The position numbers and the translations under genes are program-made. The notes under the pieces are model-generated. The model did no database searches. It saw only the letters and a program-made list of their open reading frames with translations, and was not told where the DNA came from. A DNA stretch of 64,000 nt, from positions 2,705,499-2,769,498 of the forward strand of contig OY282373.1 of the NCBI GenBank assembly GCA_958295805.1. Direction: 5' to 3'. This DNA comes from an uncultured Nitrospirales bacterium. GTDB lineage: Bacteria > Nitrospirota > Nitrospiria > Nitrospirales > UBA8639. Positions 30,802 to 56,728 of the stretch are shown here, one piece after another (positions within the stretch are counted from its first letter, which is position 1; each line of letters begins with the position of its first letter).

Positions 30802-30877
30802 TGGGGTGAGTGACGGGTCTCGAACCCGCAGCCTCCTGAGCCACAGTCAGGCGCTCTACCCTTGAGCTACACCCACC
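30802..30877 (-). tRNA. tRNA-His (anticodon GTG), CCA encoded
   Basis: The reverse complement GGTGGGTGTAGCTCAAGGGTAGAGCGCCTGACTGTGGCTCAGGAGGCTGCGGGTTCGAGACCCGTCACTCACCCCA folds as a cloverleaf. Anticodon loop is CTGTGGC, and the extra G(-1) pairs with C73, as expected for tRNA-His. Confidence 0.95.
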
Positions 30878-39160: not shown

Positions 39161-39721
39161 ATGCCGCGCATCTTCGACAACATTGAACAGCATCTCCGAA
39201 CGGCCCTGGCCAAAACCATGGCGGTTTCCGACCGAGCATGGATGGACCGCGACGGCAAAAGTGTGACCGAAAGCCAGTTCGAGATTCTGCGGACAGCGGA
39301 ATGCCCGCCCGACGCGCCGGCACTGCCGCGTCACGAGACGCATCACAAACTGGTCAGCGAGGCGACAGAACACGTCGCCCGCGAAGAAAAACAAGTGGGA
39401 GGCCAACTCGGCCGCCCCTCCAGCGCCCGCTTCCGCGCGTATGAACGCCTCAAGCGTTACGCCGAAAGCGTCAAGGACACGCTGTTCGACACTGCGCCAC
39501 TCCATCGCGCCATTGACGACGTCTACCGCCACCCCCTGCGCCAAGCCGCGGTGGATACGTTAAACCGGCAACTGCGCAGCGGCGTCTCCGACGGGGCCCT
39601 TGCCGAGATGGTCATCGCACTCAGAGACGAAGACCGGCTCTGCATCGTACACGGAGAGGAGGAAGCCCAGGAACCGAAGATCATCTGTTCCATGGGCTTA
39701 ATTGGACGGGACGATAGTTGA
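39161..39721 (+). pseudogene. Short ORF, possibly a deletion remnant of a large PLD/helicase-type defence gene
   Basis: The N-terminal 26 aa ([26 protein letters not shown]) resemble, from memory, the start of PLD-domain helicase proteins. The similarity stops abruptly at SDRA. No Shine-Dalgarno sequence. The remainder has no recognisable catalytic motif. Could also be an intact small protein. Confidence 0.3.
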
Positions 39722-39897
39722 AACCCCGTGGGTGAGCAGAGACGACGCGGACTGCGTATATTCCCAAGGATTGAGCACGTCAACGCCCGTCGGCGCAAAG
39801 TCATCAGCGTTTCGAGTCACCACCGTCATCCCGTGAACGAATGCCGTGGCTGCGATGAGCATATCGCGATCCGGGCGTGGGTCGGCACCGGACGCGA
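39698..39897 (-). pseudogene. C-terminal fragment of a PIN-domain (VapC) toxin gene
   Basis: The translation DRDMLIAATAFVHGMTVVTRNADDFAPTGVDVLNPW is the conserved VapC C-terminal third. The N-terminal two thirds are missing and replaced by the 3' end of the SGNH gene. Confidence 0.55.
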
Positions 39898-41667: not shown

Positions 41668-41683
41668 TCGATCTCTCCGCCCG

Positions 41684-41949
41684 TCAGTCCGGCTCGAACG
41701 AACCCGCATACTCGCGCTTGAGCGAGGGGTACTGCTCCGCCTTGCGCAGAAAGCAGTTGCCGATGGCGAGGCAATCAATATCCGTGCCCAGGAAGCAGCG
41801 GAAGGCGTCCGTTGGGGTACAGACGATGGGCTCGCCGCGCACGTTGAAGCTGGTGTTCACGATGACCGGGCAGCCTGTCTTGGCTTTGAAGGCTTCCAGC
41901 AGCGCATGGTAGCAGGGGTTGGTTTCGCAGTCAACGGTCTGCACGCGGG
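41684..41949 (-). pseudogene. Carbamoyltransferase (NodU/CmcH family), C-terminal fragment
   Basis: The translation VQTVDCETNPCYHALLEAFKAKTGCPVIVNTSFNVRGEPIVCTPTDAFRCF is the conserved C-terminal block of the family. It is cut at 41949 by the IS. Confidence 0.8.
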
Positions 41950-43772
41950 TGTTAGAGCAAAGCGATAATGTCCCCTAATGAGCAAAGCTAAGATGTCCCC
42001 TTTGAGGAAGGGGGACAAGGGATGGCGAAGCCAGAAGAGGGGATGACCATGCGCGAGGTGGACCGGCTGGAAGTGATCCGGGAGGTCGTGGGGAAGCGGC
42101 TGGTGCAACGGGAAGCGGGGGAGCGGTTGAGGCTGAGTGTGCGGCAAGTGAAGCGGCTGGTGCGGCGCTACCGGGAGTTGGGGGCGAAGGGGCTGATTTC
42201 GGGGCATCGGGGGCGCAAGGCGAGCAACGCGATAGCGCCGGAGGTTCGGGCAGAGATCTTGGCGGTGGTGCGGGAGCGCTACGAAGATTTTTCACCGACC
42301 CTGGCCTGGGAGAAGCTGTGGGAGGGGCACGGCTACCGGGTGTCGGTGGAGACCTTGCGCAAGTGGATGGCGGCAGCGGGGCTGTGGCGGTCGAAGAAGC
42401 GCCGGGGGATGCGGGTGCATCACAGCCGTCCCCGGCGACAGGCCGTGGGCGAGTTGGTGCAGATCGACGGCTCGCCGCACCGATGGTTCGAGGAGCGGGG
42501 GCCGTCATGCACCCTGATCGTGTTCATCGACGACGCCACCAGCCGGCTCATGGCCCTGCGTTTCGTCGAGGCCGAGACCACCGAAGCCTACATGAGGACC
42601 CTGCGCGGGTATCTGGACCAGTACGGTCGTCCGGTGGCCATCTATTCGGACAAGCACAGCATCTTCCGGGTCACTCAACAGGACCGCGAGGGCGAACGGA
42701 CTCAGTTCACCCGGGCGCTTCAAACCCTGGACATCCAACCCATCCACGCCAACACCCCCCAGGCCAAGGGCCGGGTGGAACGGGCCAACGAGACCCTCCA
42801 GGACCGCTTGGTCAAGGAGTTGCGCCTTTGCGGCATCCACTCCATCAACGAGGCCAATGCCTTCGTGCCCAAGTACATGGCTGACCACAACCGCCGCTTC
42901 GCCCGCCCGCCCCACAACCCCCACGACGCCCACCGCCCAGTGCTGCACGACCCCGATTCCCTCAACCTCATCGTGAGCTGCCACTCCACCCGCAAGCTGA
43001 GCCGCAACCTCACCCTGAGATACCGCAACAGGGAATACCAAGTCTTGAACCAAGGCAGGGGCTACCGCCTGCGCTCAAGCCCCGTCACCGTGTGCGAGGA
43101 CTTCGACGGTCGCGTCACCCTGTTATGTCAGGGCCAGACCCTCGACTACCGCATCCTCGCCCAAGGCCCAACTCCCATCCCGGTGGACGACGAGAAGAGC
43201 CTCCACCGAACCGTCGACACCGCCCGTGGGCTCCAACGCAAACGCCCCAAGTACAAACCCTCCCCAGACCACCCCTGGAACCGCTGGAGACACCCCCCCT
43301 CCTCTCCTGTCTCGCACCCTCCCCGCTAACCCCCCGCCCCTCGGAGCGGAAGGGTTGGCCTCAGGGGCTTCCGGCGCCGCAGCCAAGGGAGGGGGACTGC
43401 AACCGCGTGAGCGGTTGCAACTCTGCGCTGCCTCAAACCCGCCCATGGCCCTGCGCCTGATCATCCACAGCCCCCTGGGGGTGGGTCAGCCTCCAGCCAC
43501 TCACCGCAGCGATCATCACCCGGCCCAAGCCGAACCGGGCCCCTCCAGGGGTATCTCCTCGACACCCTCTCCCTGTCTTGTCTTGACCGTTCCTGCCCCC
43601 CTTCGCGCGAGCGCGTGAAGCCTGTGGGCAACCGGCGGTCGGGGGGAGGCAGCGACGGGGTTGTCCACAGGCCACCCCACGACGCCCTTGGAGCACCAAC
43701 CTCCCATTCCAAAACCTCCCAAGGGGACATCTTCGCTTTGCTCAAAGGGGACATCTTGGCTTTGGGTTGACA
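41950..43772 (+). mobile_element. Single-ORF rve-transposase insertion sequence (ISNCY/IS1202-group-like), 1,823 bp
   Basis: Termini tgttagagcaaagcgataatgtcccc and tgtcaacccaaagccaagatgtcccc (reverse complement of the right end). Two (a)atgtcccc(t) subterminal repeats at each end. Perfect 15-bp direct repeat cggtctgcacgcggg at 41935-41949 and 43773-43787. Confidence 0.85.
42022..43329 (+). CDS. DDE (rve/integrase-core) transposase with N-terminal HTH
   Basis: 435 aa with MTMREVDRLEVIREVV...SVRQVKRLVRRYRELG (HTH), and IDGSPHRWFEERGP...FIDDATSRL...YSDKHSIF...TPQAKGRVERANETLQDRL (DDE core). No IstB-like helper ORF follows. Confidence 0.85.
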   Translation: MAKPEEGMTMREVDRLEVIREVVGKRLVQREAGERLRLSVRQVKRLVRRYRELGAKGLISGHRGRKASNAIAPEVRAEILAVVRERYEDFSPTLAWEKLWEGHGYRVSVETLRKWMAAAGLWRSKKRRGMRVHHSRPRRQAVGELVQIDGSPHRWFEERGPSCTLIVFIDDATSRLMALRFVEAETTEAYMRTLRGYLDQYGRPVAIYSDKHSIFRVTQQDREGERTQFTRALQTLDIQPIHANTPQAKGRVERANETLQDRLVKELRLCGIHSINEANAFVPKYMADHNRRFARPPHNPHDAHRPVLHDPDSLNLIVSCHSTRKLSRNLTLRYRNREYQVLNQGRGYRLRSSPVTVCEDFDGRVTLLCQGQTLDYRILAQGPTPIPVDDEKSLHRTVDTARGLQRKRPKYKPSPDHPWNRWRHPPSSPVSHPPR

Positions 43773-43917
43773 CGGTCTGCACGCGGGCGGAATAGTCCAC
43801 GTGGGTCCCGTAACAACCATCTTCCCACGATGCCCCGATGTGAGAGAAACACCATGCTTGACCCTTTTGCCTTACTGTATTAGTCTCCTTGGTAAGGAGA
43901 CCTGCCATGATCGTCAA
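43773..43917 (-). pseudogene. Carbamoyltransferase remnant upstream of the IS insertion
   Basis: ...GTHVDYSARVQT joins in frame to VDCETNP... once the IS and one copy of the 15-bp repeat are removed. The gene's N-terminal ~400 codons are absent. Confidence 0.6.
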
Positions 43918-44149
43918 AATTACGTCAAAGCGTCAGGTCACGTTTCCTGCGCGGGTATTGGACACGCTGGGGGTCGGCCCGGGCGACCAACTCGAACTGG
44001 AAGAGGGTTCTGACGGCTTCATTCTGCGGCCTCGGCGGATCGATCCGACTTTCATCCCGCCGCTACGGGACAAGATCGATCCTGACGCCGAACCGATTGA
44101 CATGGAGACGTTCCGAAGTCAGCCCTATGACCCTTCGCTACGGGATTGA
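43907..44149 (+). CDS. AbrB/MazE/SpoVT-type antitoxin (VapB-like)
   Basis: MIVKITSKRQVTFPARVLDTLGVGPGDQLELEE is the swapped-hairpin AbrB motif. RBS TAAGGAGA upstream. Confidence 0.8.
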   Translation: MIVKITSKRQVTFPARVLDTLGVGPGDQLELEEGSDGFILRPRRIDPTFIPPLRDKIDPDAEPIDMETFRSQPYDPSLRD

Positions 44150-44522
44150 CACATCCGTGCTTGTGCGGCTGCTGACCGGCAAACCTCCCGACGCGTTCTC
44201 TTATTGCGAAAAAGCACTGAGAACGTTGGCGGAAAGCGGGGCAGAAATTTTTGCATCGAATCAGGTCATTGGGGAAACCTACGTCACGGTCCAGCACCAT
44301 TATGGCGTGTCCAGAGCCGACGCCCGCGCCAGTCTGCTCTACGTGTTACGCAGTGGACTGGTTGCTCCCCTGAACGGGCACTCCGTTATCGCGGCACTTG
44401 AATCATCTGGCGGCCCGGGGCTGTTCGACCGCTTGATTGCCGACGAGTACTCCCGCGCCGGCATGGAAGTCCTCACGCTGGATCGCAAGATGACCACTCT
44501 GCCCGCAACAAGACGGCTTTAA
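44127..44522 (+). CDS. PIN-domain toxin (VapC-like)
   Basis: Start at MTLRYGIDTSVLVRLL overlaps the antitoxin end. Acidic PIN residues (IDTS, NQVIGET, DRLIA). Confidence 0.75.
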   Translation: MTLRYGIDTSVLVRLLTGKPPDAFSYCEKALRTLAESGAEIFASNQVIGETYVTVQHHYGVSRADARASLLYVLRSGLVAPLNGHSVIAALESSGGPGLFDRLIADEYSRAGMEVLTLDRKMTTLPATRRL

Positions 44523-44544: not shown

Positions 44545-47500
44545 ATGCCCGCCAAGTTCGACAAAAACGCCGTAAGAAGCCACCTGGAGCATTTCGCGCT
44601 CCAAACCCTGTTCATCAAGGAACTCGGCTGGGACCACGGCGGCGCGGACACCGACGCCGCCGTAGGCAGCCAGACGTTTGCGCTGCACGCTATTGCCCAC
44701 AAACGCGGCATGGTCGCCTATCAATGTGTGGCAACATCCGACGACGCTTTCCCGGACCATCCCACCCGCCAGAAGATCGAGCGAATTGTTGCCAAAACCG
44801 TCCGCGAACATCTCATCGTGTACGCCACCCACGACCTGAACTCACAGTGCTGGCAATGGGTCAAGCGCGAGCCGGGCAGCCCGGACCGGACTCGCACACA
44901 CGTCTATAGCCGGGGGCAGTCGGGCGAAGCCTTGATCCAAAAACTGGAGCATCTTGTCTTCACCTCGGACGAGGAAGAAAACGTGACTCTTGTTGATGTG
45001 ACGGGCCGGGTCCGGACGGCCTTCGTGGAGAAAGTCACCAAGGGGTTCTACGACCGGTTCAAAAAGGAGCACTCTGCTTTTCTGACCTTCATTGATGGCA
45101 TCACGAACGTAGCTGACCGCGAATGGTACGCCTCACTGATGCTCAATCGCATGATGTTCATCTACTTCATCCAGAAGCGCGGCTTCCTTGACAACGACCC
45201 AAACTACCTGCGCAACCGCCTGGAACGGGTGCGACGGCAACAGGGGAACGGCAACTTCCACAGCTTCTACCGGCTGTTCCTGCTACGGCTGTTTCACGAG
45301 GGACTTGGCCAACCTGCGGCCGACCGCACCCCGGAATTGGCCACGTTGCTCGGCCGCGTGCCGTACCTCAACGGCGGCCTGTTCGACGTCCACGACCTGG
45401 AGCGCGACAACCTGAACATCCGCATCCCCGACGAAGCCTTCAAGCAAATCTTCGCGTTCTTCGACGCCTATCAGTGGCACCTTGACGACCGGCCGCTCCG
45501 CGATGACAACGAGATCAACCCCGACGTGCTGGGCTACATCTTCGAGAAATACATCAACCAGAAGCAGATGGGCGCCTACTACACCAAGGAGGACATCACC
45601 GGCTACATCAGCCGCAACACCGTCCTGCCGTTCCTGTTCGACCGAACAAAACAGGACTGTTCGATTGCCTTCAAGCCCGGCGGCGGAGTCTGGCGCCTGT
45701 TGGCGGATGACCCGGACCGGTATGTCTACGAAGCCGTCCGTCACGGCGTCACCTATGACGTTCACCAAAAGAAAGCTCTAGCCGAAAAGCGGGAACTGCC
45801 GCCCGAGATCGCCGCGGGGCTGAACGACGTGGCGCAACGCGGCGGTTGGAATCAGCCGGCCCCGCCCGAGTATGCCCTGCCGACCGAGACGTGGCGCGAG
45901 CACGTGGCCCGACGGCAACGCTATGAGGAAATCCGCGCCAAACTCGCCGCGGGCGAGGTCACGTCGATCAACGACCTCATCACCTACAATTTGGACATCG
46001 AACAATTCGCCTTGGATGTGATCGCGGGCAGCGAAGGCCTGGAACTGGTCCGCGCCTTCTGGAAGGCGATGCAGAGCGTCTCCATCCTTGACCCGACGTG
46101 CGGGTCCGGCGCGTTCCTGTTCGCCGCGCTCAACGTCCTGGAGCCGCCTGCCTGGACGCCATGCGTGGCTTCCTCAACGACCTGGAACACTCGAAACGCA
46201 AGTACCGCCCGGAAAAACTCAGCGACTTCCGCAACGTGCTGCACCAAGTCGAAGAACACGCCAGCGAACGCTACTTCGTCCTCAAGTCCATCATCATCAA
46301 CAACCTGTACGGCGTGGACATCATGGAAGAGGCGGTAGAAATCTGCAAACTCCGCCTGTTCCTCAAGCTCGTGGCGCAACTGGACACCTACGACCAGATC
46401 GAACCGCTGCCCGACGTCGACTTCAACGTCCGCGCCGGCAACACGCTGGTCGGCTTCACGTCACTGGAGGAAATACGGAAAGCCTTCACGATGACGGCTG
46501 GCGGTCAGCGCAGAATGCTGTACGCGGAAGACGAAAAAAAGCTGAGACGCATTGAAGAAGAGGCCGAACTCGCCGACCGTGCCTTTCATCAGTTCCGCGC
46601 CATGCAGACCAAGCGCGGCATGAACGCCGGCGCGTTCGCCAGCGCAAAGTCTGATCTACGGAAGCAACTTGATAATTTGCGGAACGAATTGGACGAATAT
46701 TTGTCCGGCGAATACGGCGCTAAAACCGACGACGAAACGGCTTACCAACAATGGCGCAACAGCCACCAGCCGTTTCACTGGTTCGTCGAGTTCTACGGGA
46801 TCATGCACAACGGCGGCTTTGACGTAGTCATCGGGAATCCGCCGTATGTGGAACTCTCTACGACAAACCGACAATATCGACCGAGGAATTTTCTTACTGA
46901 GACGTGCGGAAATCTTTATGCTCTTTGCACCGAGCGGGCATTTACATTGCTACACCAACGGGCTCGGTTCAGTTTTATTGTTCCCCTCAGCGTTCAGACA
47001 ACAGCTAGGATGAACAACCTGCAACAATTGTTTATTCAAGAGAAGCGGCACATCTATCTCAGCACGTTCGATGTGTATCCAAGCAAGCTGTTCGAAGGGG
47101 CGAAACAAAGAATCAGCCTGCTCATATCAACCGAACGCTTCGATAAATCTCGATTCTGGACTACATCCTACAATCGTTGGCGGCCAGAGGAAAGAAACAC
47201 ATTATTTTCAACCCTTCGATATTACCGATCATACTTGGACGAAAATTGTTGCGTGATTCCCAAACTTGGAAACAGGATTGTAGAACAAATTCTCCACAAA
47301 CTGAGCAAGTATGGTTCAGTGTCATACAAGCAAAACCCTGTGGCTCCATCATTCTACGTGCATCGAATTCCATATAACTACGTTAAGGCGTTTGATTTTG
47401 TCCCTTACTTTTGGAGTGAAATTGATGGTCGGAAAAAATCTGAGGACTACAAACCATATCAATTAGACCTGCAAGAGGTGACTGGTTCTTTGCTGGCCGT

Positions 47501-47870
47501 ACTCAACTCAAACCTTTTCTTTTGGTGGTGGTATTCGCTGTTTGAAGGATACCATTGTGGACGTCACGAGATTTTCTCGTTTCCAATCGGCATTCGGCAG
47601 ATGAAGGATGAGATTTGTGAAAATCTTGCTGCTTTCGCAGTGCAACTCATGAAAGATTACAAACAACATAGTGGACGAAAGACAGCCAACTACAAAGCAA
47701 AAGGCAAAGTCGAATACGACGAGTATTATCCCAGGAAATCTAAACCCATCATTGACGAAATCGACCGCGTGCTAGCCAAACACTACGGCTTCACGGACGA
47801 AGAGTTGGACTTCATCATCAACTACGACATCAAGTATCGGATGGGGCGGGAAGACTTGGATCGGGATTGA
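44545..47870 (+). pseudogene. Large gamma-class N6-adenine DNA methyltransferase (Eco57I/type IIG-like), copy 1, frameshifted
   Basis: Two overlapping track ORFs (44545..46338 and 46098..47870) together align end-to-end with the intact paralog at 52027-55353. Motif I is ILDPTCGSGAFL and motif IV is VIGNPPYV. The frame breaks at 46146/46147, where 10 nt present in copy 2 (atgtacgtcg) are missing. Confidence 0.85.
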
Positions 47871-47885
47871 CGGAAACTGACAGCC

Positions 47886-48374
47886 ATGGTCAAGAGAACG
47901 GTCTATATCGAAACATCTGTCGTATCCTACCTGACGGCTCGGCCTACGAGCGATTTGCTGGCGGCGGATTGGCAGAAAATCACGGTTGACTGGTGGGAGA
48001 CACGGAGAAATCAATTTGACCTCTATACGTCCGACGTCACGGTTGAAGAGGCCCGTCGGGGTAATCCTGATGCTGGGGCACGCCGTCTCGAAGCGTTGTC
48101 CGGCATTCCGATACTGCCGATCACACAGGCTGCTGTAGGGCTATCGAAGCAACTTTTTCAGGGCGGGGCGCTTCCAGCCAAAGCCGAAAACGATGCCCTG
48201 TACGTTGCCGTATCCGCGGTGCATGGGGTCGATTACTTATTGACTTGAAACTGCCGGCATCTCGATAATGCAGAGCGCAAGCCCATTGTACGGAAGGTTT
48301 GTGCGTTGCACGGGTATATCTGCCCTGAGATCTGTACCCCCCAAGAACTCATGGAAGAACTTGAATGTGTCTGA
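47886..48374 (+). pseudogene. PIN-like toxin-family gene interrupted by an in-frame TGA
   Basis: MVKRTVYIETSVVSYLTARPTSDLL...DALYVAVSAVHGVDYLLT*NCRHLDNAERKPIVRKVCALHGYICPEICTPQELMEEL. The stop at 48246-48248 sits where this family has a conserved Trp (LLTWNC), and the frame stays open to 48374. Confidence 0.65.
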
Positions 48375-48585
48375 CGAAATCATCGAGGAGTTGTGGCGAA
48401 TCAAAGACGAAATAGCCCGCGAACATGGATACGACGTCGGATCGCTCGCCGCCTATCTCCAAAGCAAGGAGCAGACGGAGGGACGGCAAGTGGTGGATTT
48501 GCAATCCCTGAAGAAGGCTGCCAGACAAGACGAATCGCCGCCACCCTCATGTTCCGGAGCTTTCCGGTCAAAGGGAAGTTCATGA
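48361..48585 (+). CDS. Small hypothetical protein (antitoxin-like partner of the PIN-like gene)
   Basis: Starts at TTG 48361 or GTG 48367 (MSDEIIEELWRIKDEIAREHGYD...). Overlaps the end of the PIN-like frame and overlaps the next gene by ATGA. Confidence 0.4.
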   Translation: MNVSDEIIEELWRIKDEIAREHGYDVGSLAAYLQSKEQTEGRQVVDLQSLKKAARQDESPPPSCSGAFRSKGSS

Positions 48586-48782
48586 AGCTGCGTGTTGCTC
48601 AAGAAGCTGACGCGCTCTACCTCCGCCTCGACGAGTCCGCCATCATCAACTCCGAAGAAGTTTCGCCGGGCGTCGTACTCGACTACAACGATGCAAACGA
48701 AGTGGTCGGCATAGAACTGCTCCACCTCTCGAAACGCTCCTCCACGCTCAACCTCTCTGCCCTGCAATTTGAAACGACGTAA
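48582..48782 (+). CDS. DUF2283-family small protein
   Basis: MKLRVAQEADALYLRLDESAIINSEEVSPGVVLDYNDANEVVGIELLHLSKR matches the DUF2283 pattern (ADALYIRL...GVILDYD...VGIEIL). Confidence 0.75.
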   Translation: MKLRVAQEADALYLRLDESAIINSEEVSPGVVLDYNDANEVVGIELLHLSKRSSTLNLSALQFETT

Positions 48783-48866
48783 CCGCCAGAACCCCATTCA
48801 CTTCTGACAGGCCGGGGCCGTGCGGCTTCCTACGGAGTTCGTCTGCGGGATTCGTCGGGTCAAAAA

Positions 48867-49022
48867 CTCGCACCGCCGGTGCGAGAAATTGGGGATTTGT
48901 CAAAAGTGCAACCATTGGTTGCACTCATTCAATGGGGTCTCCATCCTGTCGTTGCTCTCAAGCTGATGCGGCAGTTTTTGTGGACTATCGGGAAAAGGAA
49001 AAACTCCAACCACTGGTTGGAG
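48867..49022 (+). promoter_or_regulatory. Three 19-nt perfect palindromes (9-bp arms, 1-nt centre) upstream of the DprA-like gene
   Basis: A is ctcgcaccgccggtgcgag (48867-48885), B is gtgcaaccattggttgcac (48906-48924), and C is ctccaaccactggttggag (49004-49022). Each is preceded by an A-run (caaaaa, caaaa, gaaaaa). C contains the GGAG that lies 7 nt before the TTG start at 49030. Confidence 0.55.
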
Positions 49023-49029
49023 TAATGAG

Positions 49030-49683
49030 TTGAGTCAAGCATTGGGAATGGATCCTGAGCATCAAACGCTGTTAAGGCCCGGCGCTTCCGACTATCCGGC
49101 GGTGTTGCGGCGTTGCTCCGAGGATGGGCGTCCGCTTGCCGTCATGGTACGGGGCAACCTCGGCGTGCTTGATGTACCGCTGCTCGGGTTCTTTTGCTCC
49201 GTGCGCTCCCCCGGTGACGTGATTCTCAAAACTTACGACTTGGCCAAGACGCTGCGCCATGCCGACGTGACGATCATCGGCGGGTTCCAGTCGCCGATGG
49301 AAAAAGAGTGCCTGGACGTTCTGTTGCGGGGCACGGCGTCCGTCGTCGTCTGTCCGGCCCGGGGATTCAATCACATGCGAACCCCGAAAAACTGGAAGCC
49401 GCCCATAGCCGAAGGCCGCCTGTTGCTCCTCTCGTTCTTCGACGGCAACGTCCGCCGTCCCACCACGGCCCTGGCCGCCAAGCGCAACGCCTACGTCGCC
49501 ACCCTGGCCAACCGCCTCCTCATCGCCCACGCTGAACAAGACAGCAAAACCGAAACGTTGTGCAGGGACGCCCTGACCCAAGGCAAGCAGGTCTTCACCC
49601 TGGACTCCCCAGACAACGCCTCCCTGATCGAACTTGGTGCCCTCCCCGTCGCAGCGGACGACCTCACCGCACTCTTCGCCTAG
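49030..49683 (+). CDS. DprA/Smf-like (SLOG/Rossmann-fold) protein, divergent, no C-terminal DNA-binding extension
   Basis: 217 aa. The order of DprA blocks is preserved: DYPAVL, LLGFFCSVRSPG, IIGGFQSPMEKECLDVLLRG in place of SGxAxGID..AH, VVVCPARGF, RLLLLSFF, KRNAYVATLANRLLIAHAEQDSKTE, GKQVFTL. Start is TTG 49030 or ATG 49048. Confidence 0.65.
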   Translation: MSQALGMDPEHQTLLRPGASDYPAVLRRCSEDGRPLAVMVRGNLGVLDVPLLGFFCSVRSPGDVILKTYDLAKTLRHADVTIIGGFQSPMEKECLDVLLRGTASVVVCPARGFNHMRTPKNWKPPIAEGRLLLLSFFDGNVRRPTTALAAKRNAYVATLANRLLIAHAEQDSKTETLCRDALTQGKQVFTLDSPDNASLIELGALPVAADDLTALFA

Positions 49684-49740
49684 GGCCTGTTCATACGAAT
49701 GCAACGCCTCGAAGATACGCACGAACATGATGAACCCCTC

Positions 49741-49845
49741 TCCGCTCTCTGTAGCTGCGCCATCTCATGGCGCCGAGGGGACCATGCCGGATGCGAAGCG
49801 GCGTTGGCTCTCCGCTCTTCTGTAGCGGCGCCATCTCATGGCGCC
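49741..49845. repeat. Two copies of the REP-like element tccgctct(c/t)ctgtagcNgcgccatctcatggcgcc
   Basis: Copies at 49741-49774 and 49811-49845. Each contains the hairpin ggcgccat-ctc-atggcgcc (8-bp stem). A related copy lies at 15227-15255. Confidence 0.8.
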
Positions 49846-50026
49846 CGTCGTGGTATTCCAAACACTCTCACCGACCCATCTCGGGCTAGGCAGGGAGGCG
49901 AGATAAGACATGTCCCTGCCTCCGAGCAGGGATCACGCAACGACGAACCACGGGACGGCAATCAAGTCCATTCAATAAGTCATCGTGCCAACGGGCACAA
50001 AAGAACGCGGTTCGTTCCTTGCCTTA

Positions 50027-50055
50027 TTGAGAGAACCAAAGCCGGTTCATATAAT
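50027..50055 (+). promoter_or_regulatory. Candidate sigma70 promoter for rmuC (TTGAGA-17 nt-TATAAT)
   Basis: TTGAGAgaaccaaagccggttcaTATAAT, followed by GGAGGA and the rmuC ATG 24 nt downstream of the -10 box. Confidence 0.45.
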
Positions 50056-50078
50056 GTAACGAAACGGAGGATCGACCA

Positions 50079-51302
50079 ATGGAATGGATAATCGGCGGGA
50101 CTATCGGATTGCTTATCGGCGGCACGGTCTGCTGGTTCGTTCAGGAATTTCGGACCAGAAGCAAATTGGACAAGGAGTCGGCCAAACACGAGGTGGAAAT
50201 GGCCGGGTTGCAGGCACGTCTAGAGACTGCCGACAACGCCCAACAGATTATCGAGTCGGCGAAAACGCAAATGGGTGAAACATTCAGAGCGGCCGCCGCC
50301 GATGCATTGAGTGGTAACAACAAACAGTTTTTGAGCCTGGCCAACGAAAATTTTGACAAGACGATGGAATCTGCTAAAGGCGAGTTTCACCGGCGATACC
50401 AGCAGTTTCAGGATATGGTGAAACCACTGGCGGAAAACTATAGCAAGCTCAATCCGCAGATTGATTCACTGATTACGCAGGTGCAGGCCGCTAATGCGGA
50501 AACCAACAAATTGTCTGCTGCGCTTACCGACAATCGTCGCGTCGGGAATTGGGGCGAGATTCAATTGCGACGGGTGGTTGAGCTTGCCGGTATGACTGAT
50601 TATTGCGACTTTATTGAGCAGGCGACCGGCGGCAGTTCACAAGACCGTCCCGATTTGATTGTGACGCTGCCGGAGCGGCGTGCCGTTGTCGTGGACGCCA
50701 AAGCGTCCACCGCCGCGTACATGGAAGCGCAGCAGGCGGAGGATGACGAAACCGCCAATGTTGCCTGGAAGAAACACGCTGCCGCGTTGAGACGCCAAGT
50801 CACCGAGTTGGCCCGTAGAAATTATGGCCAGAAAACTGAAGGCGCTCTTGATTTTGTCGTGATGTTCGTGCCGGGAGACCAGTTTCTCTCTGCGGCCCTG
50901 AACACCGACCGCGATCTGTTGGAATATGCGATGGACCGCCGGGTTGCCATCGCTACGCCGGCGTCGCTGATTGCGATGCTGTGGGCCATCAACAACGGTT
51001 GGCAACAGTTCCGCCTTGCCCAGGATGCCCGGCAAATCAAAGAAGTGGGCGAAGACATGCACAAGCGGATGCTCAAATTCATCAGTGACTATCAGAACGT
51101 CGGCAAGGAATTGAAAAGCGCCGTGACCGCTTTCAACGAATCTATCGGTTCGTTCGATGAGCGAATTGTCCCTAAAGGACGACAGTTCTCCAAAATGGTT
51201 ACGGGCGATGATCGGTTCGAGATTCCGCATGCGATTGACCCGTCGCTGCGCACTTCCCGCTACGCCACACCCCCCGCTTCGACCACTGACGGCGACGACT
51301 AG
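50079..51302 (+). CDS. rmuC: DNA recombination protein RmuC
   Basis: 407 aa with an N-terminal TM helix, a long coiled coil, and a nuclease-like core (NWGEIQLRRVVELAGM...DLIVTLPERRAVVVDAKAS...FVVMFVPGDQF). Confidence 0.88.
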   Translation: MEWIIGGTIGLLIGGTVCWFVQEFRTRSKLDKESAKHEVEMAGLQARLETADNAQQIIESAKTQMGETFRAAAADALSGNNKQFLSLANENFDKTMESAKGEFHRRYQQFQDMVKPLAENYSKLNPQIDSLITQVQAANAETNKLSAALTDNRRVGNWGEIQLRRVVELAGMTDYCDFIEQATGGSSQDRPDLIVTLPERRAVVVDAKASTAAYMEAQQAEDDETANVAWKKHAAALRRQVTELARRNYGQKTEGALDFVVMFVPGDQFLSAALNTDRDLLEYAMDRRVAIATPASLIAMLWAINNGWQQFRLAQDARQIKEVGEDMHKRMLKFISDYQNVGKELKSAVTAFNESIGSFDERIVPKGRQFSKMVTGDDRFEIPHAIDPSLRTSRYATPPASTTDGDD

Positions 51303-51436
51303 CGTCTTGGGTCGACGAATTCAGACAAGTGATCTCATCTTCTCAAATAGATGACCGTACGCATGTCGTCGTTCACACCACCTACCATCGGGCTCTTGGA
51401 ATTCAGGCAAGAAAGTAAAGGCGGGGAACGAGTGAC

Positions 51437-51706
51437 TTACGCCACCCGTCTTGCTTCGGCAGCCTTGGCAAGATCATACGTCGCCTGCACGTTCAGCCAC
51501 AGCTTCGGCGACGTACCCAGAATGTCGGCCAGATCGAGGGCGGCCTCGGCGGTGATGCCTCGCTTGCCTCGTATCAGCTCATTCAGGCGCGCTCGGCTCC
51601 AGCCGATCTTTTGGGCGAACGCCGCTTGGGTTATTCCCATGGGATCGAGAAATTCCTCACGCAGCATTTCACCGGGATGAAAAGGATTTTCTGGTTGTTG
51701 ATCCAC
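51437..51706 (-). CDS. higA: HigA-family antitoxin (XRE-type HTH)
   Basis: HPGEMLREEFLDPMGITQAAFAQKIGWSRARLNELIRGKRGITAEAALDLADILGTSPKLWLNVQ. GTG start with AGGAGG upstream. Confidence 0.85.
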   Translation of the reverse strand: MDQQPENPFHPGEMLREEFLDPMGITQAAFAQKIGWSRARLNELIRGKRGITAEAALDLADILGTSPKLWLNVQATYDLAKAAEARRVA

Positions 51707-51720
51707 TGCTTTTGCCTCCT

Positions 51721-51926
51721 TTAGTGATAGTCGATGATTTGCACGTCATAGGCCTACCCCTTACTCCATTGAAACCAGAACGTTGCCAAATGTCTGAATC
51801 ACGTCCGCATGTTATCGGAACCCGATAATAATGACAAAATCGGCAATGGCTTGCGTGAACGGATGCACGTTCGCGTTGACTGCCAGGCGTGGTCCATCTG
51901 CCGAATGAATCCGTTGTCTTCATCAT
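51721..51926 (-). pseudogene. Decayed higB (RelE/ParE-fold killer) gene
   Basis: One frame reads WFQWSKG*AYDVQIIDYH*, the HigB C-terminal motif interrupted by TAG. The upstream part is only readable in another frame. The stop lies 14 nt before the higA start, as in higBA operons. Confidence 0.45.
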
Positions 51927-52026
51927 TTCACTTTTTCAGAGAATTTGTATTATTCTTGAGACAAAGGATTGTAGATTGAGGCTTTGTGGAGGACAACAAG
52001 TCGATGGTCAATCCGAGGAATTCCCG

Positions 52027-55000
52027 ATGCGGACACTCAACGGAACCAACGTCACGCAACATCTGAAGAACTTCGATCTCCGCACGCTGTTCATTGAAGA
52101 ACTGGGCTGGGACCAGGGCGGAACCGATACCGACGCCACCGTGGGCAACCAAACGTTCACGTTGCAGGCCATTGCACACGCACGCGGCATGGTGGCCTAT
52201 CAATGCGTGGCGGACGTTGACGATGTTTTCCCCGATCATCCGACCCGCCGGAAGATCGAGAGAGCCGTTGCCAAAACCGTCCGCGAACACGTCATCGTCT
52301 ACCCTTCACGCGACAGGAACGCCCTGTACTGGCAATGGGTGAAGCGCGAGCAGGGGAGGCCTGATCGATCTCACGCGTCCATTTATCACCTGGACCACCC
52401 GGACGACGCGATGATCCAGAAGTTGAGGCATCTTGTCTGTACGCCGGACGAGGAAGATAACAACCCGAGCCTCGCCGATGGATCGGACCGAATGCTCGCG
52501 GCCTTCGACGTTGAGAAAGTCATCAGGCAGTTCTACGACCGTTTGAAAAAACAGCGCGACGGGTTTCAGAGATTCATCAAAGGCATCCCGACCCTTGCAG
52601 ACAGGGAATGGTACGCCTCGCTGATGCTGAACCGGATCATGTTTCTCTACTTCATCCAGAAGCGGGGCTTCCTTGACGGCGACCCGGACTATCTGCGCAA
52701 CCGCCTTGAACGCATGCAATGGACACGGGGGAAGGACCGCCTCCAACGGTTCTACCGGCTGTTTCTCCTGAAACTGTTCCACGAGGGGTTGAGTCGGCCA
52801 GAGGCCGAGCGAGCACCGGAATCAGCGGAATTGCTCGGCACGGTCCCCTATCTCAACGGCGGCCTGTTCGACGTACACGACCTGGAGCGCGACAACCCGG
52901 ACATCCGCATCCCGGACGAAGCCTTCGTGAAAATTTTCGCCTTCTTCGACGCCTATCAGTGGCATCTTGACGACCGGCCGCTCCGCAACGACAACGAGAT
53001 CAATCTCGACGTGCTGGGCTCCATCTTTGAGAAGTACGTCAACCAGAAGCAGATGGGCGCCTACTACACCAAGGAGGACGTCACCGGTTACATCAGCCGC
53101 AACACCGTCCTGCCGTTCCTGTTCGACCGTGTGAAACAGGATTGTTCGAGTGCGTTCAAGCCCGGCGGCGGAGTGTGGCGGCTGCTGGCGGACGACCCTG
53201 ACCGGTACGTCTACGAAGCCGTCCGTCACGGTGTCACCTATGACGTTCACAAACAGGAAGCCCTGGCCGACAGACGCGAATTGCCGCCCGAGGTCGCCGC
53301 GGGGCTGCACGACGTGGCGCAACGCGGCGGCTGGAACGAAGCGGCCCCGTCCGAGTACGCCCTGCCGACCGAGACGTGGCGCGAGCACGTGGTCCGCCGG
53401 CAACGTTATGAGGAAATCCGCGCCAAACTCGCCGCGGGCGAGGTGACGTCGATCAACGACCTCATCACCTACAATTTGGACGTCGAACAATTCGCCCAGG
53501 ACGTGATCGCGGGCAGCGAAGGCCCGGAACTGGTCCGCGCCTTCTGGAAGGCACTCACCACCGTCTCCATCCTCGACCCGACCTGCGGGTCCGGCGCGTT
53601 TCTGTTGGCCGCGATGAACGTGCTGGAGCCGATGTACGTCGCCTGCCTGGACGCCATGCGGGAACACCTTGATGACCTGACGCGCTCGACGCACACGCAC
53701 GGCCCGGAGCATCTGAACGATTTTCGCACGATACTTGACCGCGTGGCGGCACATGCCGGCGAACGCGACTTCATCCTCAAGTCCATCATTGTCAACAACG
53801 TGTACGGCGTGGACATCATGGACGAGGCCGTGGAACTCTGCAAACTGCGCCTGCTCCTGAAACTGTTCGCGGAGACGAGGGCCGACCGGATCGAACCACT
53901 GCCCGACGTGGCCCTCAACGTCCGTGCGGGCAACACGCTCGTGGGTTTCACGTCGATCAAGGAAATACAGGAAGCGTTCGTCATGACCCAAGGCGACCAG
54001 CGGAGAATGCTCTACCCCGAAGACGAGACCGAACTGACGCGCATTAAAACGCGCGCCGAAGCCGCCGACCTGGCCTTTCGCCATTTCCGCGACGTGCAGG
54101 CCGAGCACGGCGTGGGTGCAGGCGCGTTCGCCCACGCGAAGTCGGATCTGCGGGAACGACTCGACGACCTGCGCAACGAATTCAACGAATATTTGGCCGG
54201 CAACTACGGCGTCGAGACCGCTGACGAAGGGGCCTACCGGCAATGGCGTCACAGCCACCGGCCTTTCCATTGGTTCATCGAATTCTACGGCGTCATGAAC
54301 GGCGGCGGGTTCGACGTGCTCATCGGGAATCCGCCTTACCTGAAATACAGTCAGGTGAAGAATCATGACACCGTCAAGGGCTACGCCACCCGATCCTGCG
54401 GCAATCTGTTCGCATTGATGATGGAACGAAGCACGCGCCTCTCTCATTCGGAAAGCTTCTTGAGCATGATGGTCCCGCTGAGTGGACACAGCACAAAGAA
54501 AATGCTCCCGTTGATGAACACGTTTTATAAGTCGTTCACGTCGTGCCACCTGTTCAACATCAGCGCCGACGCCCATCCAGGCGTTTTGCTTCCCGGAGCC
54601 AGATTCAGGTTGGCGATCTTTATCACGTCAAATCGTGGAAAGGGAATCTTCACGACTGGGTATTCACGATGGTACGCAGCGGAGGGGGGCCATCTGTTCA
54701 GCCTCTTGCAGTACACGCCCATCGGGACCATCCACTATCCAACCGCCATTCCAAAGGTCTCAAGTCCTCTGCATCTACAGATTTTGCAGAAACTGTACGC
54801 GTATCAAGAAAGCCTGCACGATTCGCTCAGTTCCAGACCGTTGTCTGATCGGGTGCTGCTCTATCATTCATCACCGGTTAATTGGATTCGAGCGCATACG
54901 ACGACGCCATATTTTTACAACCAGCGAGACGGTGAAAAAACGTCCGTCAAGTTGAAACCTCTCTACCAGAACAACGGGACCGAGAGTTTACAGGGAATCC

Positions 55001-55353
55001 TCTGTAGCACGGTGTTCTTTATCTGGTGGCTGTCTCATTCGGACTGCTGTGACTTGAACCGACAGGAGATCGAGACGTTTCCCAAGTGTCGAAGTGCGAA
55101 ATTCGTCTCGCTGTCTCACCGGTTAGAAGATGACATGCGGGTTCATGCAAAACGACATCGTTATCCCGACAAGACGACGGGAAGAATTGAATACGACGAA
55201 TTTGTTATGAAAATGTCCAAACCGCTCATAGACGACGTTGATGCCGTCCTGGCCGAGCACTACGGTTTCACGGACGAGGAATTGGATTTCATCATCAACT
55301 ACGATATCAAGTACCGCATGGGCTTGAACAATCTGAGCAGTGACGGGGAATGA
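52027..55353 (+). CDS. Large gamma-class N6-adenine DNA methyltransferase (Eco57I/type IIG-like), copy 2, intact
   Basis: 1,108 aa from ATG 52027 (GAGGAA upstream). Motif I is ILDPTCGSGAFL, motif IV is LIGNPPYL, and PYLNGGLFD and GAYYTKEDVTGYI helper motifs are present. Paralog of 44545-47870 except for residues after NPPY. Confidence 0.9.
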   Translation: MRTLNGTNVTQHLKNFDLRTLFIEELGWDQGGTDTDATVGNQTFTLQAIAHARGMVAYQCVADVDDVFPDHPTRRKIERAVAKTVREHVIVYPSRDRNALYWQWVKREQGRPDRSHASIYHLDHPDDAMIQKLRHLVCTPDEEDNNPSLADGSDRMLAAFDVEKVIRQFYDRLKKQRDGFQRFIKGIPTLADREWYASLMLNRIMFLYFIQKRGFLDGDPDYLRNRLERMQWTRGKDRLQRFYRLFLLKLFHEGLSRPEAERAPESAELLGTVPYLNGGLFDVHDLERDNPDIRIPDEAFVKIFAFFDAYQWHLDDRPLRNDNEINLDVLGSIFEKYVNQKQMGAYYTKEDVTGYISRNTVLPFLFDRVKQDCSSAFKPGGGVWRLLADDPDRYVYEAVRHGVTYDVHKQEALADRRELPPEVAAGLHDVAQRGGWNEAAPSEYALPTETWREHVVRRQRYEEIRAKLAAGEVTSINDLITYNLDVEQFAQDVIAGSEGPELVRAFWKALTTVSILDPTCGSGAFLLAAMNVLEPMYVACLDAMREHLDDLTRSTHTHGPEHLNDFRTILDRVAAHAGERDFILKSIIVNNVYGVDIMDEAVELCKLRLLLKLFAETRADRIEPLPDVALNVRAGNTLVGFTSIKEIQEAFVMTQGDQRRMLYPEDETELTRIKTRAEAADLAFRHFRDVQAEHGVGAGAFAHAKSDLRERLDDLRNEFNEYLAGNYGVETADEGAYRQWRHSHRPFHWFIEFYGVMNGGGFDVLIGNPPYLKYSQVKNHDTVKGYATRSCGNLFALMMERSTRLSHSESFLSMMVPLSGHSTKKMLPLMNTFYKSFTSCHLFNISADAHPGVLLPGARFRLAIFITSNRGKGIFTTGYSRWYAAEGGHLFSLLQYTPIGTIHYPTAIPKVSSPLHLQILQKLYAYQESLHDSLSSRPLSDRVLLYHSSPVNWIRAHTTTPYFYNQRDGEKTSVKLKPLYQNNGTESLQGILCSTVFFIWWLSHSDCCDLNRQEIETFPKCRSAKFVSLSHRLEDDMRVHAKRHRYPDKTTGRIEYDEFVMKMSKPLIDDVDAVLAEHYGFTDEELDFIINYDIKYRMGLNNLSSDGE

Positions 55354-55513: not shown

Positions 55514-56728
55514 CTAAGAAGCCGTCTCCATCGTTCGTTTGATAAATTGTCCGAACAGGGGAACGGCAAAGCAATATTTCCCATGTCTATTCTTAAAGAT
55601 AAGGCCTGCATCGCTCAATCGAGCCAGCATCTGATTTACCTGGCTATGACTGATTGGTTTTTGGAGTTGAGACCGTGAGGCCTCAGCTATTTCATTTCCC
55701 GTGAATTCACTCTCGCTTGTCGTCAGATTGGCAATAATCCAAAGCAAGTCCTTTTGTCGTTCCGTGACCTTTGCCCATCTTCCCGCATAAAAATCCGAGT
55801 CTAATTTAGAAATAATCGCTTCGGCGGGGACAATTGTATTTTCCCCGGCTTCAATTTGTTGCAACCACGTGTCATACGCTTCTTTGCAGATAAATTGGAT
55901 AAAATAGGGATATCCTCCCGACATCCCCACAATGCGATTGACTGATTTCTCGTTAAATCTGATAGGACATTCTGCATCTTGAATCGGTTTCAGGATCGCG
56001 TCTTTTGTATCTTCCTCCGACAGTCTCTTCAAAAATAAGACGTGAAACATTCTTTCAGAATACGTTCGTGCCTCTACGAGTTTAGGGAACAACGTCGGCA
56101 GGCCCGTCAATACCAACAGATAACTCAAATTTTTTCGCTGTAACGATTGGAAAACTTCTAAGATGAGCGATAAGGGAAATTGCTCTTTTTTGGCTTGGTC
56201 CGACATGTTTTGTGCTTCATCATAGGCAAAAATTATCCCTTTCTTCTGAAGCTGAGGTAGAAATGCCCAAATATATTCAAGAACGTATTTGAGCTTGTCT
56301 GAGACGAGCCCGGGAGTTTCATCATAGAGTCTTCGCAAAAATGGATAAGCGAGTGTGTCTTTCGCTTGCGTCTCAATAAAACCAGCAGATTCTGGAGCGG
56401 GCCGCGTCACCGTAATTCGGGACGTGATTACCGACATATCTCTCAGGATTCTGGTTGCCACGCTTTCTTCACTGATACTGACCGATTCAGAAAGGTCGTT
56501 TCCTACCCACAGCCAACCTTCTTGGATGGCAATCGGCTTGAGAGATTCTAATAGCACGGTTTTTCCTACCCCTCGAAGCCCAGTAATGACGAGATTTTCT
56601 AAAATGGTCGTTTGCCGTAACAGCCGTCTGAATTCTATCTCCTCTTCTTTACGCCCTGCGAGATAGGGAGGCATATGACCTGCTCCTGGCTTAAACGGGT
56701 TGGTAAAAGGTGGATGCTTTATTTCCAT
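55514..56728 (-). CDS. AAA-type ATPase with C-terminal winged-helix (Orc1/Cdc6-like, 'archaeal ATPase' family)
   Basis: 404 aa. FTNPFKPGAGHMPPYLAGRKEEEIEF, Walker A GLRGVGKTVLL, Walker B IIFAYDEAQ. The C-terminal segment QVNQMLARLSDAGLIFKNRHGKYCFAVPLF looks like a wHTH. Visibly AT-rich relative to its neighbours. Confidence 0.75.
   Translation of the reverse strand: MEIKHPPFTNPFKPGAGHMPPYLAGRKEEEIEFRRLLRQTTILENLVITGLRGVGKTVLLESLKPIAIQEGWLWVGNDLSESVSISEESVATRILRDMSVITSRITVTRPAPESAGFIETQAKDTLAYPFLRRLYDETPGLVSDKLKYVLEYIWAFLPQLQKKGIIFAYDEAQNMSDQAKKEQFPLSLILEVFQSLQRKNLSYLLVLTGLPTLFPKLVEARTYSERMFHVLFLKRLSEEDTKDAILKPIQDAECPIRFNEKSVNRIVGMSGGYPYFIQFICKEAYDTWLQQIEAGENTIVPAEAIISKLDSDFYAGRWAKVTERQKDLLWIIANLTTSESEFTGNEIAEASRSQLQKPISHSQVNQMLARLSDAGLIFKNRHGKYCFAVPLFGQFIKRTMETAS

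Follow-up and report, generated by a model that had tools for sequence, protein, structure and literature searches.

Two methyltransferase genes lie between leuS and uvrC

We analysed a 64,000-nt stretch of DNA from an uncultured Nitrospirales bacterium (hereafter the window, to which all positions refer), in which an island, taken here as the region between leuS and uvrC, carries two genes for large DNA methyltransferases, copy 1 and copy 2. An earlier note, made from this sequence alone, had described them as directly repeated and collinear, and alignment confirmed both points. Upstream of them lies what is left of a third gene, which in two sister genomes (loci L083 and L084) encodes a phospholipase D-type (PLD, HKD motif) nuclease fused to an SNF2 helicase (PLD-SNF2). 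The features are collected in Table 1.

Table 1. Coordinates of the features of the island and of one tRNA gene outside it (TRD, target recognition domain; ORF, open reading frame; IS, insertion sequence; HTH, helix-turn-helix)
Feature	Position	Strand	Description
tRNA-His(GTG)	30802-30876	-	Sole tRNA gene in the window
PLD(HKD)-nuclease/SNF2-helicase remnant	39161-39721	+	186 aa; tblastn with seven full-length partners, 55-79% identity
4.07-kb insertion	39756-43828		Replaces L083 9207-9281 (blastn); between partner remnant and MazE/PIN
ORF in the insertion	39898-41778	-	626 aa; weak GDSL-lipase match only
IS, ~1.8 kb	41950-43771	+	Transposase ORF 42022-43329, HTH_32 and rve (Pfam)
MazE-like antitoxin	43889-44149	+	Pfam; between partner gene and copy 1
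PIN-domain toxin	44097-44522	+	Pfam; between partner gene and copy 1
Methyltransferase copy 1	44545-47870	+	Pseudogene through a 10-nt deletion at 46144/46145; two overlapping ORFs
Copy 1, N-terminal module	~44545-44955	+
Copy 1, motif I	46090-46119	+
Copy 1, NPPY	46836-46847	+
Copy 1, TRD	~46851-47700	+	43% GC
PIN-like protein	47886-48248	+	120 aa; small cargo (Pfam)
Small ORF	48268-48585	+	105 aa; small cargo
DUF2283 protein	48582-48782	+	Small cargo (Pfam)
DprA-like protein (DNA_processg_A)	49030-49683	+	217 aa; Pfam; PADLOC PsyrA/ShosA-like
RmuC-family protein	50079-51302	+	Pfam 261 bits; between the methylase genes
Xre-type HTH protein	51437-51706	-	89 aa; HTH_3/HTH_31; divergent from copy 2
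Methyltransferase copy 2	52027-55353	+	Intact, 1108 aa
Copy 2, N-terminal module	52027-52434	+
Copy 2, motif I	53575-53604	+
Copy 2, NPPY	54328-54339	+
Copy 2, TRD	~54341-55180	+	51% GC
AAA_16/ATPase_2-type P-loop ATPase	55514-56728	-	404 aa; weak Pfam match; between copy 2 and uvrC

Copy 2 is uninterrupted, and its ATG at 52027 agrees in start and length with the homologues. By ORF listing and translation, copy 1 is read as 44545-46338 (597 aa) and 46098-47870 (590 aa). Global and local DNA alignment with copy 2 revealed a 10-nt gap just after the S-adenosylmethionine-binding motif (DPTCGSGAFL...NVLEP), and it is this deletion that splits copy 1 and parts motif I from NPPY. The missing nucleotides read CGCTGTACAA in the sister genomes and CGATGTACGT in copy 2. 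When they were put back, no further stop codon was present, and copy 1 is therefore a recent pseudogene. The earlier description of two paralogs of about 1,100 aa therefore holds for copy 2 and fails for copy 1, whose frameshift had been missed, as had the partner remnant, which lies upstream of the region that the note covered. Phase variation of copy 1 was considered and rejected: the deletion lies outside any repeat tract, and the gene is broken elsewhere in a close relative (locus L001).

Both copies contain the motifs PYLNGGLF, GAYYTKED, DPTCGSGAFL and NPPY and, at the N-terminus, a WQWVKRE block, as had been reported. Nucleotide identity between the copies was 70-80% over the N-terminal 900 nt, 87-95% over ~45440-46040, 71-79% from ~46040 to NPPY, ~45% in the C-terminal TRD, which is essentially unrelated, and 73% in the final ~150 nt; amino acid identity drops from 72% before NPPY to 33% in the TRD. 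An identity of about nine nucleotides in ten, estimated by eye in the note, was reproduced for the stretch it had quoted (91.0% for 45361-45650 against 52846-53135) and applies only to ~45440-46040; elsewhere up to NPPY the value is 70-80%. Third-codon-position identity was highest at residues 300-500 (78-92%, compared with 60-70% in the flanks), which suggests gene conversion between the copies in the centre of the genes, to which constraint may add.

Both TRDs are poorer in GC than the remainder of each gene (59-61%). The copy 1 TRD varies among close strains, with the window and L083 forming a pair distinct from L084 and from locus L013, whereas the copy 2 TRD is stable across all four. TRD identity is decoupled from the identity of the remaining protein. 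The low GC content and the differing copy 1 TRDs of otherwise close strains point to TRD replacement by horizontal exchange. At 49 of 412 highly conserved positions, K52 in the N-terminal module among them, copy 2 differs from the consensus of the family. The catalytic motifs of copy 2 are intact, and its dN/dS against orthologues was 0.25-0.34.

The methyltransferases belong to a widespread family that includes Slr6050

Pfam assigned Eco57I and MmeI_Mtase domains to the methylases, together with a weak match to DUF7814. Residues 4-1100 of copy 2 aligned with positions 3-1096 of the 1100-position PADLOC model PDLC03628 (974 bits), which is labelled 'type IIG restriction enzyme-methyltransferase' (REase_MTase_IIG), and the PADLOC models for PglX and DrmMI matched copy 2 in part. 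Copy 2 thus shares the N-terminal module, the helical region, the methylase and the C-terminal tail of the PDLC03628/Slr6050 family from end to end. The domain search that the earlier note had proposed for the N-terminus and for the whole protein accordingly gave an answer for the full length, and the N-terminus stayed without a match.

A search of a large protein database with copy 2 yielded more than 7,700 homologues; the best cover 98-100% of the query at 55-98% identity. Most of the top 120 have about 1100 aa and, a few close relatives aside, they are 54-63% identical over their full length. When a single genome of each species was scanned, at least 589 relatives were found, spread over Acidobacteriota, Dehalococcoidia, Latescibacterota, Poribacteria, Nitrospirota, Cyanobacteria, Planctomycetota and other taxa; the closest among the matches listed was a metagenome-assembled genome of the Nitrospirales (83%). 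The order of parts, with motif I upstream of NPPY and a C-terminal TRD after it, is that of gamma-class N6-adenine DNA methyltransferases, and DPTCGSGAFL and NPPY were invariant in alignments of 42 and 78 sequences. By sequence, copy 2 matched nothing in the PDB, and look-ups by exact sequence found neither copy 2 nor the partner-remnant ORF. The full-length AlphaFold model of copy 2 best matched the BrxX/PglX structures 9ewz, 8q56 and 8c45, followed by CamA, M.TaqI and DrdV. Both genes, judged by their sequences, encode predicted PglX/Eco57I-like gamma-class N6-adenine DNA methyltransferases, each with its own C-terminal TRD.

The family has one member with an assigned specificity. A tblastn search of plasmids identified slr6050 on pSYSX of Synechocystis PCC 6803, which encodes 1100 aa and is 42.6% identical over 99% of the length of copy 2. 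Hagemann et al. (PMC6105098) tentatively named Slr6050 M.Ssp6803IV and assigned GA(m6A)GGC (m6A, N6-methyladenine) to it by elimination, as the sole remaining candidate; REBASE lists it under this name and site (PMC6105098). Its expression in E. coli failed and a deletion mutant could not be segregated, and the gene was taken as essential for viability; a weak similarity to HSDR_N was also noted (PMC6105098). Slr6050 and copy 2 share the N-terminal module, the motifs and the C-terminal tail, and the order of genes on pSYSX (a PLD-SNF2 helicase gene, a VapC pair, slr6050) resembles that of the island, with an intact helicase 54% identical over its full length to the partner described below. Slr6050 differs from copy 2 in its intact partner gene, in having no DprA-like gene within 9 kb downstream, and in a TRD that is only 26% identical, and its recognition sequence therefore probably differs as well.

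A PLD-SNF2 gene precedes the methylase gene in most loci

Gene neighbourhoods were surveyed in the best 80 of the at least 589 homologous loci, with 10-kb flanks and ORFs clustered by blastp; the final counts are those of a tblastn recount. Two neighbour families only were recurrent, PLD-SNF2 and a DprA-like protein. A further cluster, a '1190-aa divergent neighbour' (c5) without Pfam, PADLOC or PDB matches, was discarded, as tblastn showed it to be a shadow ORF, antisense to the PLD-SNF2 gene, in genomes of high GC content.

The PLD-SNF2 gene encodes about 1130 aa and lies immediately upstream of the methylase gene, invariably on the same strand. Of the 80 loci, 68 have at least 90% of the gene, 4 have it truncated by a contig end, 2 keep a remnant, 3 lack it and 3 could not be assessed; it is thus present immediately upstream in ~93% of the informative loci. 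The gap between the two genes is often 16 nt or less, or the genes overlap, and the adjacency spans Acidobacteriota, Chloroflexota, Latescibacterota, Poribacteria, Nitrospirota, Cyanobacteria and Planctomycetota. Pfam placed PLDc_2/RE_NgoFVII at the N-terminus of the partner, followed by SNF2-rel_dom and Helicase_C. Conserved in at least 90% of 62 partner sequences were the HKD motif (LHAKLYL..D..GSSNLT), Walker A (GDVVGLGKT), DESH and motif VI (QRAGRVDRIGQ). The closest PDB relative by sequence is RapA. In PADLOC the partner scores best with an unnamed cluster, 'HKD+Snf2'; DrmD, BrxH (BrxHI/BrxHII) and DpdE match the helicase core only, and all NCBIfam scores fall well under their cutoffs.

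The second family, of ~214 aa ('B214', PF02481), follows the methylase gene in the same orientation in 49 of the 68 loci with at least 5 kb of downstream sequence, and the window holds such a gene in that position. The family resembles the PADLOC models of PsyrA and ShosA, whose DprA-like proteins presumably act as antitoxins of their toxin-antitoxin systems. By analogy we lean, with low confidence, towards a regulatory or safeguarding role for the DprA-like protein. The copy in the window scored well under the cutoff of the NCBIfam dprA model, and its near-identical orthologue in L001 clusters in B214.

On these grounds we consider it likely that the methylases are the modification/specificity subunits of a conserved, ATP-dependent, restriction-like module with the PLD-SNF2 protein as partner, a module that is decaying in the window. 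The homologues sit beside PLD-SNF2 and not in BREX (bacteriophage exclusion) or DISARM (defence island system associated with restriction-modification) operons, which is the question for which the earlier note had wanted a neighbourhood survey. Its statement that no BREX or DISARM partner accompanies the methylases is borne out by the island and by the 80 loci, where none is conserved. The statement that a separate restriction endonuclease is missing is right for an intact gene; it overlooks the 186-aa PLD-SNF2 remnant, the counterpart of which is intact in the sisters. Among the three options left in the note, the modification arm of an uncharacterised system suits the family and an orphan methylase describes the present state of this genome, and the fused type IIG enzyme is improbable.

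The family could alternatively consist of solitary, regulatory or housekeeping m6A methylases that have no functional relation to the adjacent helicase-nuclease. Copy 2 persists here without a partner and with its low dN/dS, 3 of the 80 loci have no partner, and slr6050 has been read as essential for viability (PMC6105098). We nevertheless regard this as improbable in view of the same-strand, often overlapping or closely spaced (≤16 nt) PLD-SNF2 gene across many phyla, the TRD swapping and low-GC TRDs typical of the specificity subunits of defence systems, and the defence cargo and toxin-antitoxin pairs nested in the operon.

Toxin-antitoxin pairs of the MazE/PIN or VapC type are repeatedly nested between the PLD-SNF2 and methylase genes (loci L002-L082). 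The defence cargo seen between the methylase and DprA-like genes comprises SMODS with Cap17, AbiJ, MTaX1-HNH, Schlafen/AlbA_2, Dsr1-like proteins and AAA_15/21 ATPases. A set of E1/E2/ubiquitin-like genes lies downstream of slr6050 in Synechocystis. The operon is an insertion hotspot.

The module is decayed in the window and intact in sister genomes

The intact locus is present in two sister Nitrospirales genomes, of which L083 is the closer (97-98% identical). The order of genes in the sisters is leuS, PLD-SNF2 (1123-1129 aa), MazE, PIN, copy 1 (1100-1111 aa), small ORFs, DprA-like, RmuC, HTH, copy 2 (1108 aa) and uvrC; L083 alone of the two also has the AAA_16 gene before uvrC. The copy 1 orthologue of L083 (P0020, 1111 aa) is intact, as is that of L084. 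An intact PLD-SNF2 gene thus stands immediately upstream of the methylase in both L083 and L084, and no such gene does so in the window.

Three lesions of the window were mapped at base resolution against the sister sequence. In the partner gene, a 2,811-nt in-frame deletion (L083 5878-8688 is missing) has joined residues 1-26 in frame to residues ~963-1120, so that the PLD and helicase domains are gone; Pfam gave no match to the 186-aa product. The second lesion is the insertion between the remnant and the MazE/PIN pair, and the third is the 10-nt deletion in copy 1. Part of the insertion (40134-41949) is common to the window and L001 by blastn. The IS ends in inverted repeats, within which there are tandem sub-repeats, and a direct repeat of 16 nt, ACGGTCTGCACGCGGG, stands on either side of it without a mismatch (41934-41949 and 43772-43787). 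A blastn gap showed that the IS is absent from L001, and its insertion is therefore recent. Copy 1 was inactivated independently in the two genomes: L001 retains the 10 nt and is broken by two other 1-nt indels. The available L001 locus ends short of the site of the partner deletion.

The window is a decayed member of the PLD-SNF2 and methylase module. We infer that the nuclease was lost first and methylase copy 1 thereafter, which is the order to be expected because, once the nuclease has gone, the methylase no longer protects against anything. With the partner deleted and copy 1 frameshifted, copy 2 is the sole intact core gene, and at most it would act as a solitary m6A methylase.

Loss and interruption were also seen elsewhere. 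In L016 (9753-9986) and L040 (9100-9264), the last ~75 residues of PLD-SNF2 are kept directly upstream of an intact methylase gene. As these two loci retain the 3' remnant only, loss of the nuclease with the 3' end kept seems to recur, and this 3' end may hold expression signals of the methylase gene. In L012 the helicase is frameshifted at about residue 540, in L081 the methylase is in two ORFs, and L008 carries a large insertion; together with L050, these are loci in which the methylase or the PLD-SNF2 gene is split or interrupted, and decay of the module is therefore common.

The N-terminal module carries no recognisable nuclease site

The N-terminal ~135 aa of the methylases form a module of their own. 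A model of residues 1-215, predicted from an alignment, reached a pLDDT (per-residue confidence score) of ~90 across residues 10-130, with the predicted order of elements alpha-alpha-beta-beta-beta-alpha-beta-beta-beta-alpha. A Foldseek search of this model against the PDB gave no significant match; the top hits (E ~0.03) were SPARDA chains, which we take to carry the PD-(D/E)xK DREN nuclease domain, and a protein with a 'putative restriction endonuclease domain'. Pfam returned noise only at E ≤10, leaving residues 1-190 without a match.

Eleven positions (L21, G27, W28, G54, P69, R74, E87, H88, W102, W104 and G110) were conserved in at least 95% of 78 diverse members, and E87 is absent from Slr6050. 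In the alignments of 42 and 78 sequences no D...(D/E)xK pattern is conserved, in keeping with the earlier note, which could place no nuclease motif in this domain; the strands in which the pattern would sit read xFxLxAVAHKRGxVVYxC. A profile search with the module retrieved 1,318 representative clusters, and in the top 150 of them the module stands at or near the N-terminus, with the exceptions of P0133 and P0121. Some of these proteins measure ~1050-1190 aa; the others are short and probably represent fragments. P0133, an unrelated metagenomic protein of 1050 aa, contains four tandem divergent copies of the module between what appear by eye to be a cyclic nucleotide-binding-like N-terminus and a cysteine-rich, 4Fe-4S-like C-terminus. 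P0121 (300 aa) contains two copies. The tandem copies of P0133 and the pair in P0121 suggest that the module is a mobile binding module. It is probably non-catalytic, or at least no PD-(D/E)xK nuclease, and would serve in binding or coupling.

These findings bear on whether both proteins are self-contained type IIG enzymes in which the N-terminal ~135-190 aa are the endonuclease, as in MmeI, BpuSI and Eco57I. The full-length match to a PADLOC model of that name, the confidently predicted alpha/beta topology, the nature of the best, non-significant Foldseek matches and the weak HSDR_N similarity of Slr6050 (PMC6105098) speak for such enzymes. The type IIG class is defined by an endonuclease domain on the methylase polypeptide, and here no catalytic triad, no Pfam domain and no Foldseek match better than E 0.03 indicates one. 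No D...(D/E)xK is conserved among the 78 sequences, E87 is missing in Slr6050, the module has neither a Pfam match at E ≤10 nor a sequence match in the PDB, and four tandem copies in P0133 fit binding better than catalysis. Moreover, a dedicated PLD nuclease stands next door in ~93% of the informative loci, and REBASE once filed PglX homologues as type IIG by homology alone (PMC12707154). We therefore hold self-contained type IIG enzymes to be improbable, and favour methylases that would modify and specify while the PLD-SNF2 neighbour cuts.

The module combines features of several known systems

BREX PglX/BrxX has the closest solved fold, with ~1000-1100 aligned columns, and shares the helical N-terminal region, the gamma-class N6-adenine domain and the C-terminal TRD; GAAGGC, the site of the one assigned family member, is asymmetric and methylated on one strand, like BREX sites. 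The sequences are nonetheless only 12-13% identical, the present family has the extra ~135-aa N-terminal module, and PglZ, BrxC, BrxL, BrxA and BrxB are absent, the partner being a PLD-SNF2 fusion. Class 1 DISARM likewise places an SNF2 helicase gene beside an Eco57I-like N6-adenine methylase gene and includes a PLD nuclease (DrmC). Here, in contrast, the PLD domain is fused to SNF2, DrmA and DrmB (DUF1998 helicase) are absent, and the scores are far under the cutoffs.

That the methylases could be PglX of BREX or DrmMI of class 1 DISARM acting in those very systems is suggested by the nearest solved structures, by partial PADLOC and NCBIfam matches to PglX and DrmMI, and by partial matches of the partner helicase to DrmD and BrxHI/BrxHII. 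However, the best NCBIfam PglX score was 62 bits against a cutoff of 500 (BREX-1), those for other types were 21-48 against 400-900, and for DrmD, the cutoff of which is 610 bits, the partner reached 123-130. PglZ, BrxC, BrxL, DrmA and DrmB are not conserved among the neighbours in the 80 loci, and none of these genes lies in the island between leuS and uvrC. Membership of either system is accordingly the least probable of the explanations considered.

The restriction-like module that we favour resembles in its logic the Type ISP (LlaGI, LlaBIII) and Type III (Mod/Res) systems, which likewise join a nuclease, a superfamily 2 motor, an N6-adenine methylase and a TRD, recognise asymmetric sites that are methylated on one strand, and depend on a collision between two sites (established knowledge and PMC12707154). 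The two-gene layout is that of Mod plus Res in Type III. Unlike both, the present module has an N-terminal PLD/HKD nuclease in place of an Mrr or PD-(D/E)xK domain, and a RapA-like SNF2 motor. It differs from Type III in its gamma-class PglX-like methylase, where Mod is beta-class, and from Type ISP in its division into two chains, where all parts are on one.

A similar effector is that of the type-2 BREX-related (Hma-like) systems, in which an N-terminal HKD nuclease, a RapA-like Swi2/Snf2 domain and extra C-terminal domains occur together with an N6-adenine methylase in a proposed restriction-modification-like arrangement (Rakesh and Krishnan 2026, PMC12839542). The pairing of an HKD-Snf2 effector with an N6-adenine methylase is common to both. 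Those systems, however, have a DUF499 ATPase, a DUF1156-type methylase with an internal TRD, and DUF3780, none of which is conserved here (PMC12839542). Membership of this DUF499-centred group was rejected on the published definition (PMC12839542), as the present methylase is Eco57I/PglX-like with a C-terminal TRD and is accompanied by no conserved ATPase or DUF3780.

A proposed mode of action and its weak points

In the mechanism that we propose, the TRD of the methylase would read a short asymmetric site and one host strand would be methylated (Slr6050 with GAAGGC is the only data point, and a tentative one). At an unmethylated foreign site, the methylase would engage the helicase-nuclease, and the engaged PLD-SNF2 protein would translocate with ATP and cut. 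In the PLD nucleases Nuc, BfiI and SauUSI, two HKD motifs make one active site. The partner has one HKD per chain, so that cleavage would require dimerisation or the meeting of two helicase-nuclease chains, comparable to the collision in Type ISP and Type III systems.

Several points weigh against this interpretation. Restriction of DNA or phage by the two-gene module and the physical coupling of methylase and helicase-nuclease are both proposals. The specificity of Slr6050, itself tentative, was obtained by elimination only. The PADLOC family is named 'REase_MTase_IIG', and the topology of the N-terminal module resembles the restriction-endonuclease fold (alpha-beta-beta-beta-alpha-beta), with the marginal Foldseek matches to PD-(D/E)xK proteins already mentioned, and a cryptic nuclease keeps a small probability. 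The full-length model is of moderate quality (pLDDT 67.5). The dN/dS values, 0.25-0.35, give no sign of which copy is broken and which intact, and three loci (L040, L060 and L066) have no partner.

No description of a PLD-SNF2 and methylase combination was found in the searchable literature, a scope that left subscription journals and REBASE aside. The methylase family itself is already catalogued (as 'type IIG' in PADLOC and with M.Ssp6803IV in REBASE), and it is the PLD-SNF2 module that is apparently undescribed. We advance, as a tentative idea with the balance slightly against it, that the trio of PLD(HKD)-SNF2 protein, PglX-like methylase with its 'GW...WxW' module and DprA-like protein is a distinct, undescribed class of ATP-dependent restriction-modification system, mis-filed as 'type IIG' and widespread in environmental phyla (at least 589 species-level genomes), that anchors insertions of toxin-antitoxin and defence genes. 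The Nitrospirales lineage, in which one helicase-nuclease gene stands alongside two methylase paralogues with different TRDs, would be a variant with one motor-nuclease and two specificity/methylase subunits.

The two-component reading has consequences for annotation: thousands of ~1100-aa proteins are filed as 'type IIG' or 'DNA methyltransferase', and our results indicate that they are modification/specificity subunits, the nuclease being supplied by the neighbouring PLD-SNF2 protein. The failed knockout of slr6050 in Synechocystis could be explained by its cognate nuclease being still present; by our own reading, the mutant may not have segregated owing to self-restriction by the intact neighbouring helicase-nuclease. 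The module would also be a compact candidate defence system that joins elements of BREX (the PglX-like methylase), DISARM (SNF2 and PLD) and the logic of Type III and Type ISP. Finally, the intact and decayed alleles in near-identical strains form a natural series in which the order of loss, the nuclease and then the methylase, may be followed.

Other genes of the island

The remaining genes vary more between the loci. The MazE/PIN pair has the same position in L083 and L084, where a VapC pair stands in Synechocystis pSYSX. The small cargo genes downstream of copy 1 were also called in L001 and L083. The RmuC gene was found in L001, L013, L083 and L084 and is lineage-specific cargo, and the Xre-type HTH gene is conserved in the sister loci. 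The AAA_16 gene is present in L001, L013 and L083 and absent from L084 and the other loci, and is thus no conserved neighbour of the family; its product has a possible C-terminal winged-helix domain.

The 626-aa ORF of the insertion could not be assigned with confidence by Pfam, NCBIfam or PADLOC. It is part of an inserted segment of about 2.2 kb (39756-41949) that is present in the window and in L001 and absent from L083 and L084, and in L001 a Carbam_trans_C fragment adjoins the counterpart of the ORF. The tRNA-His(GTG) gene lies ~8 kb from the island, away from its boundaries.

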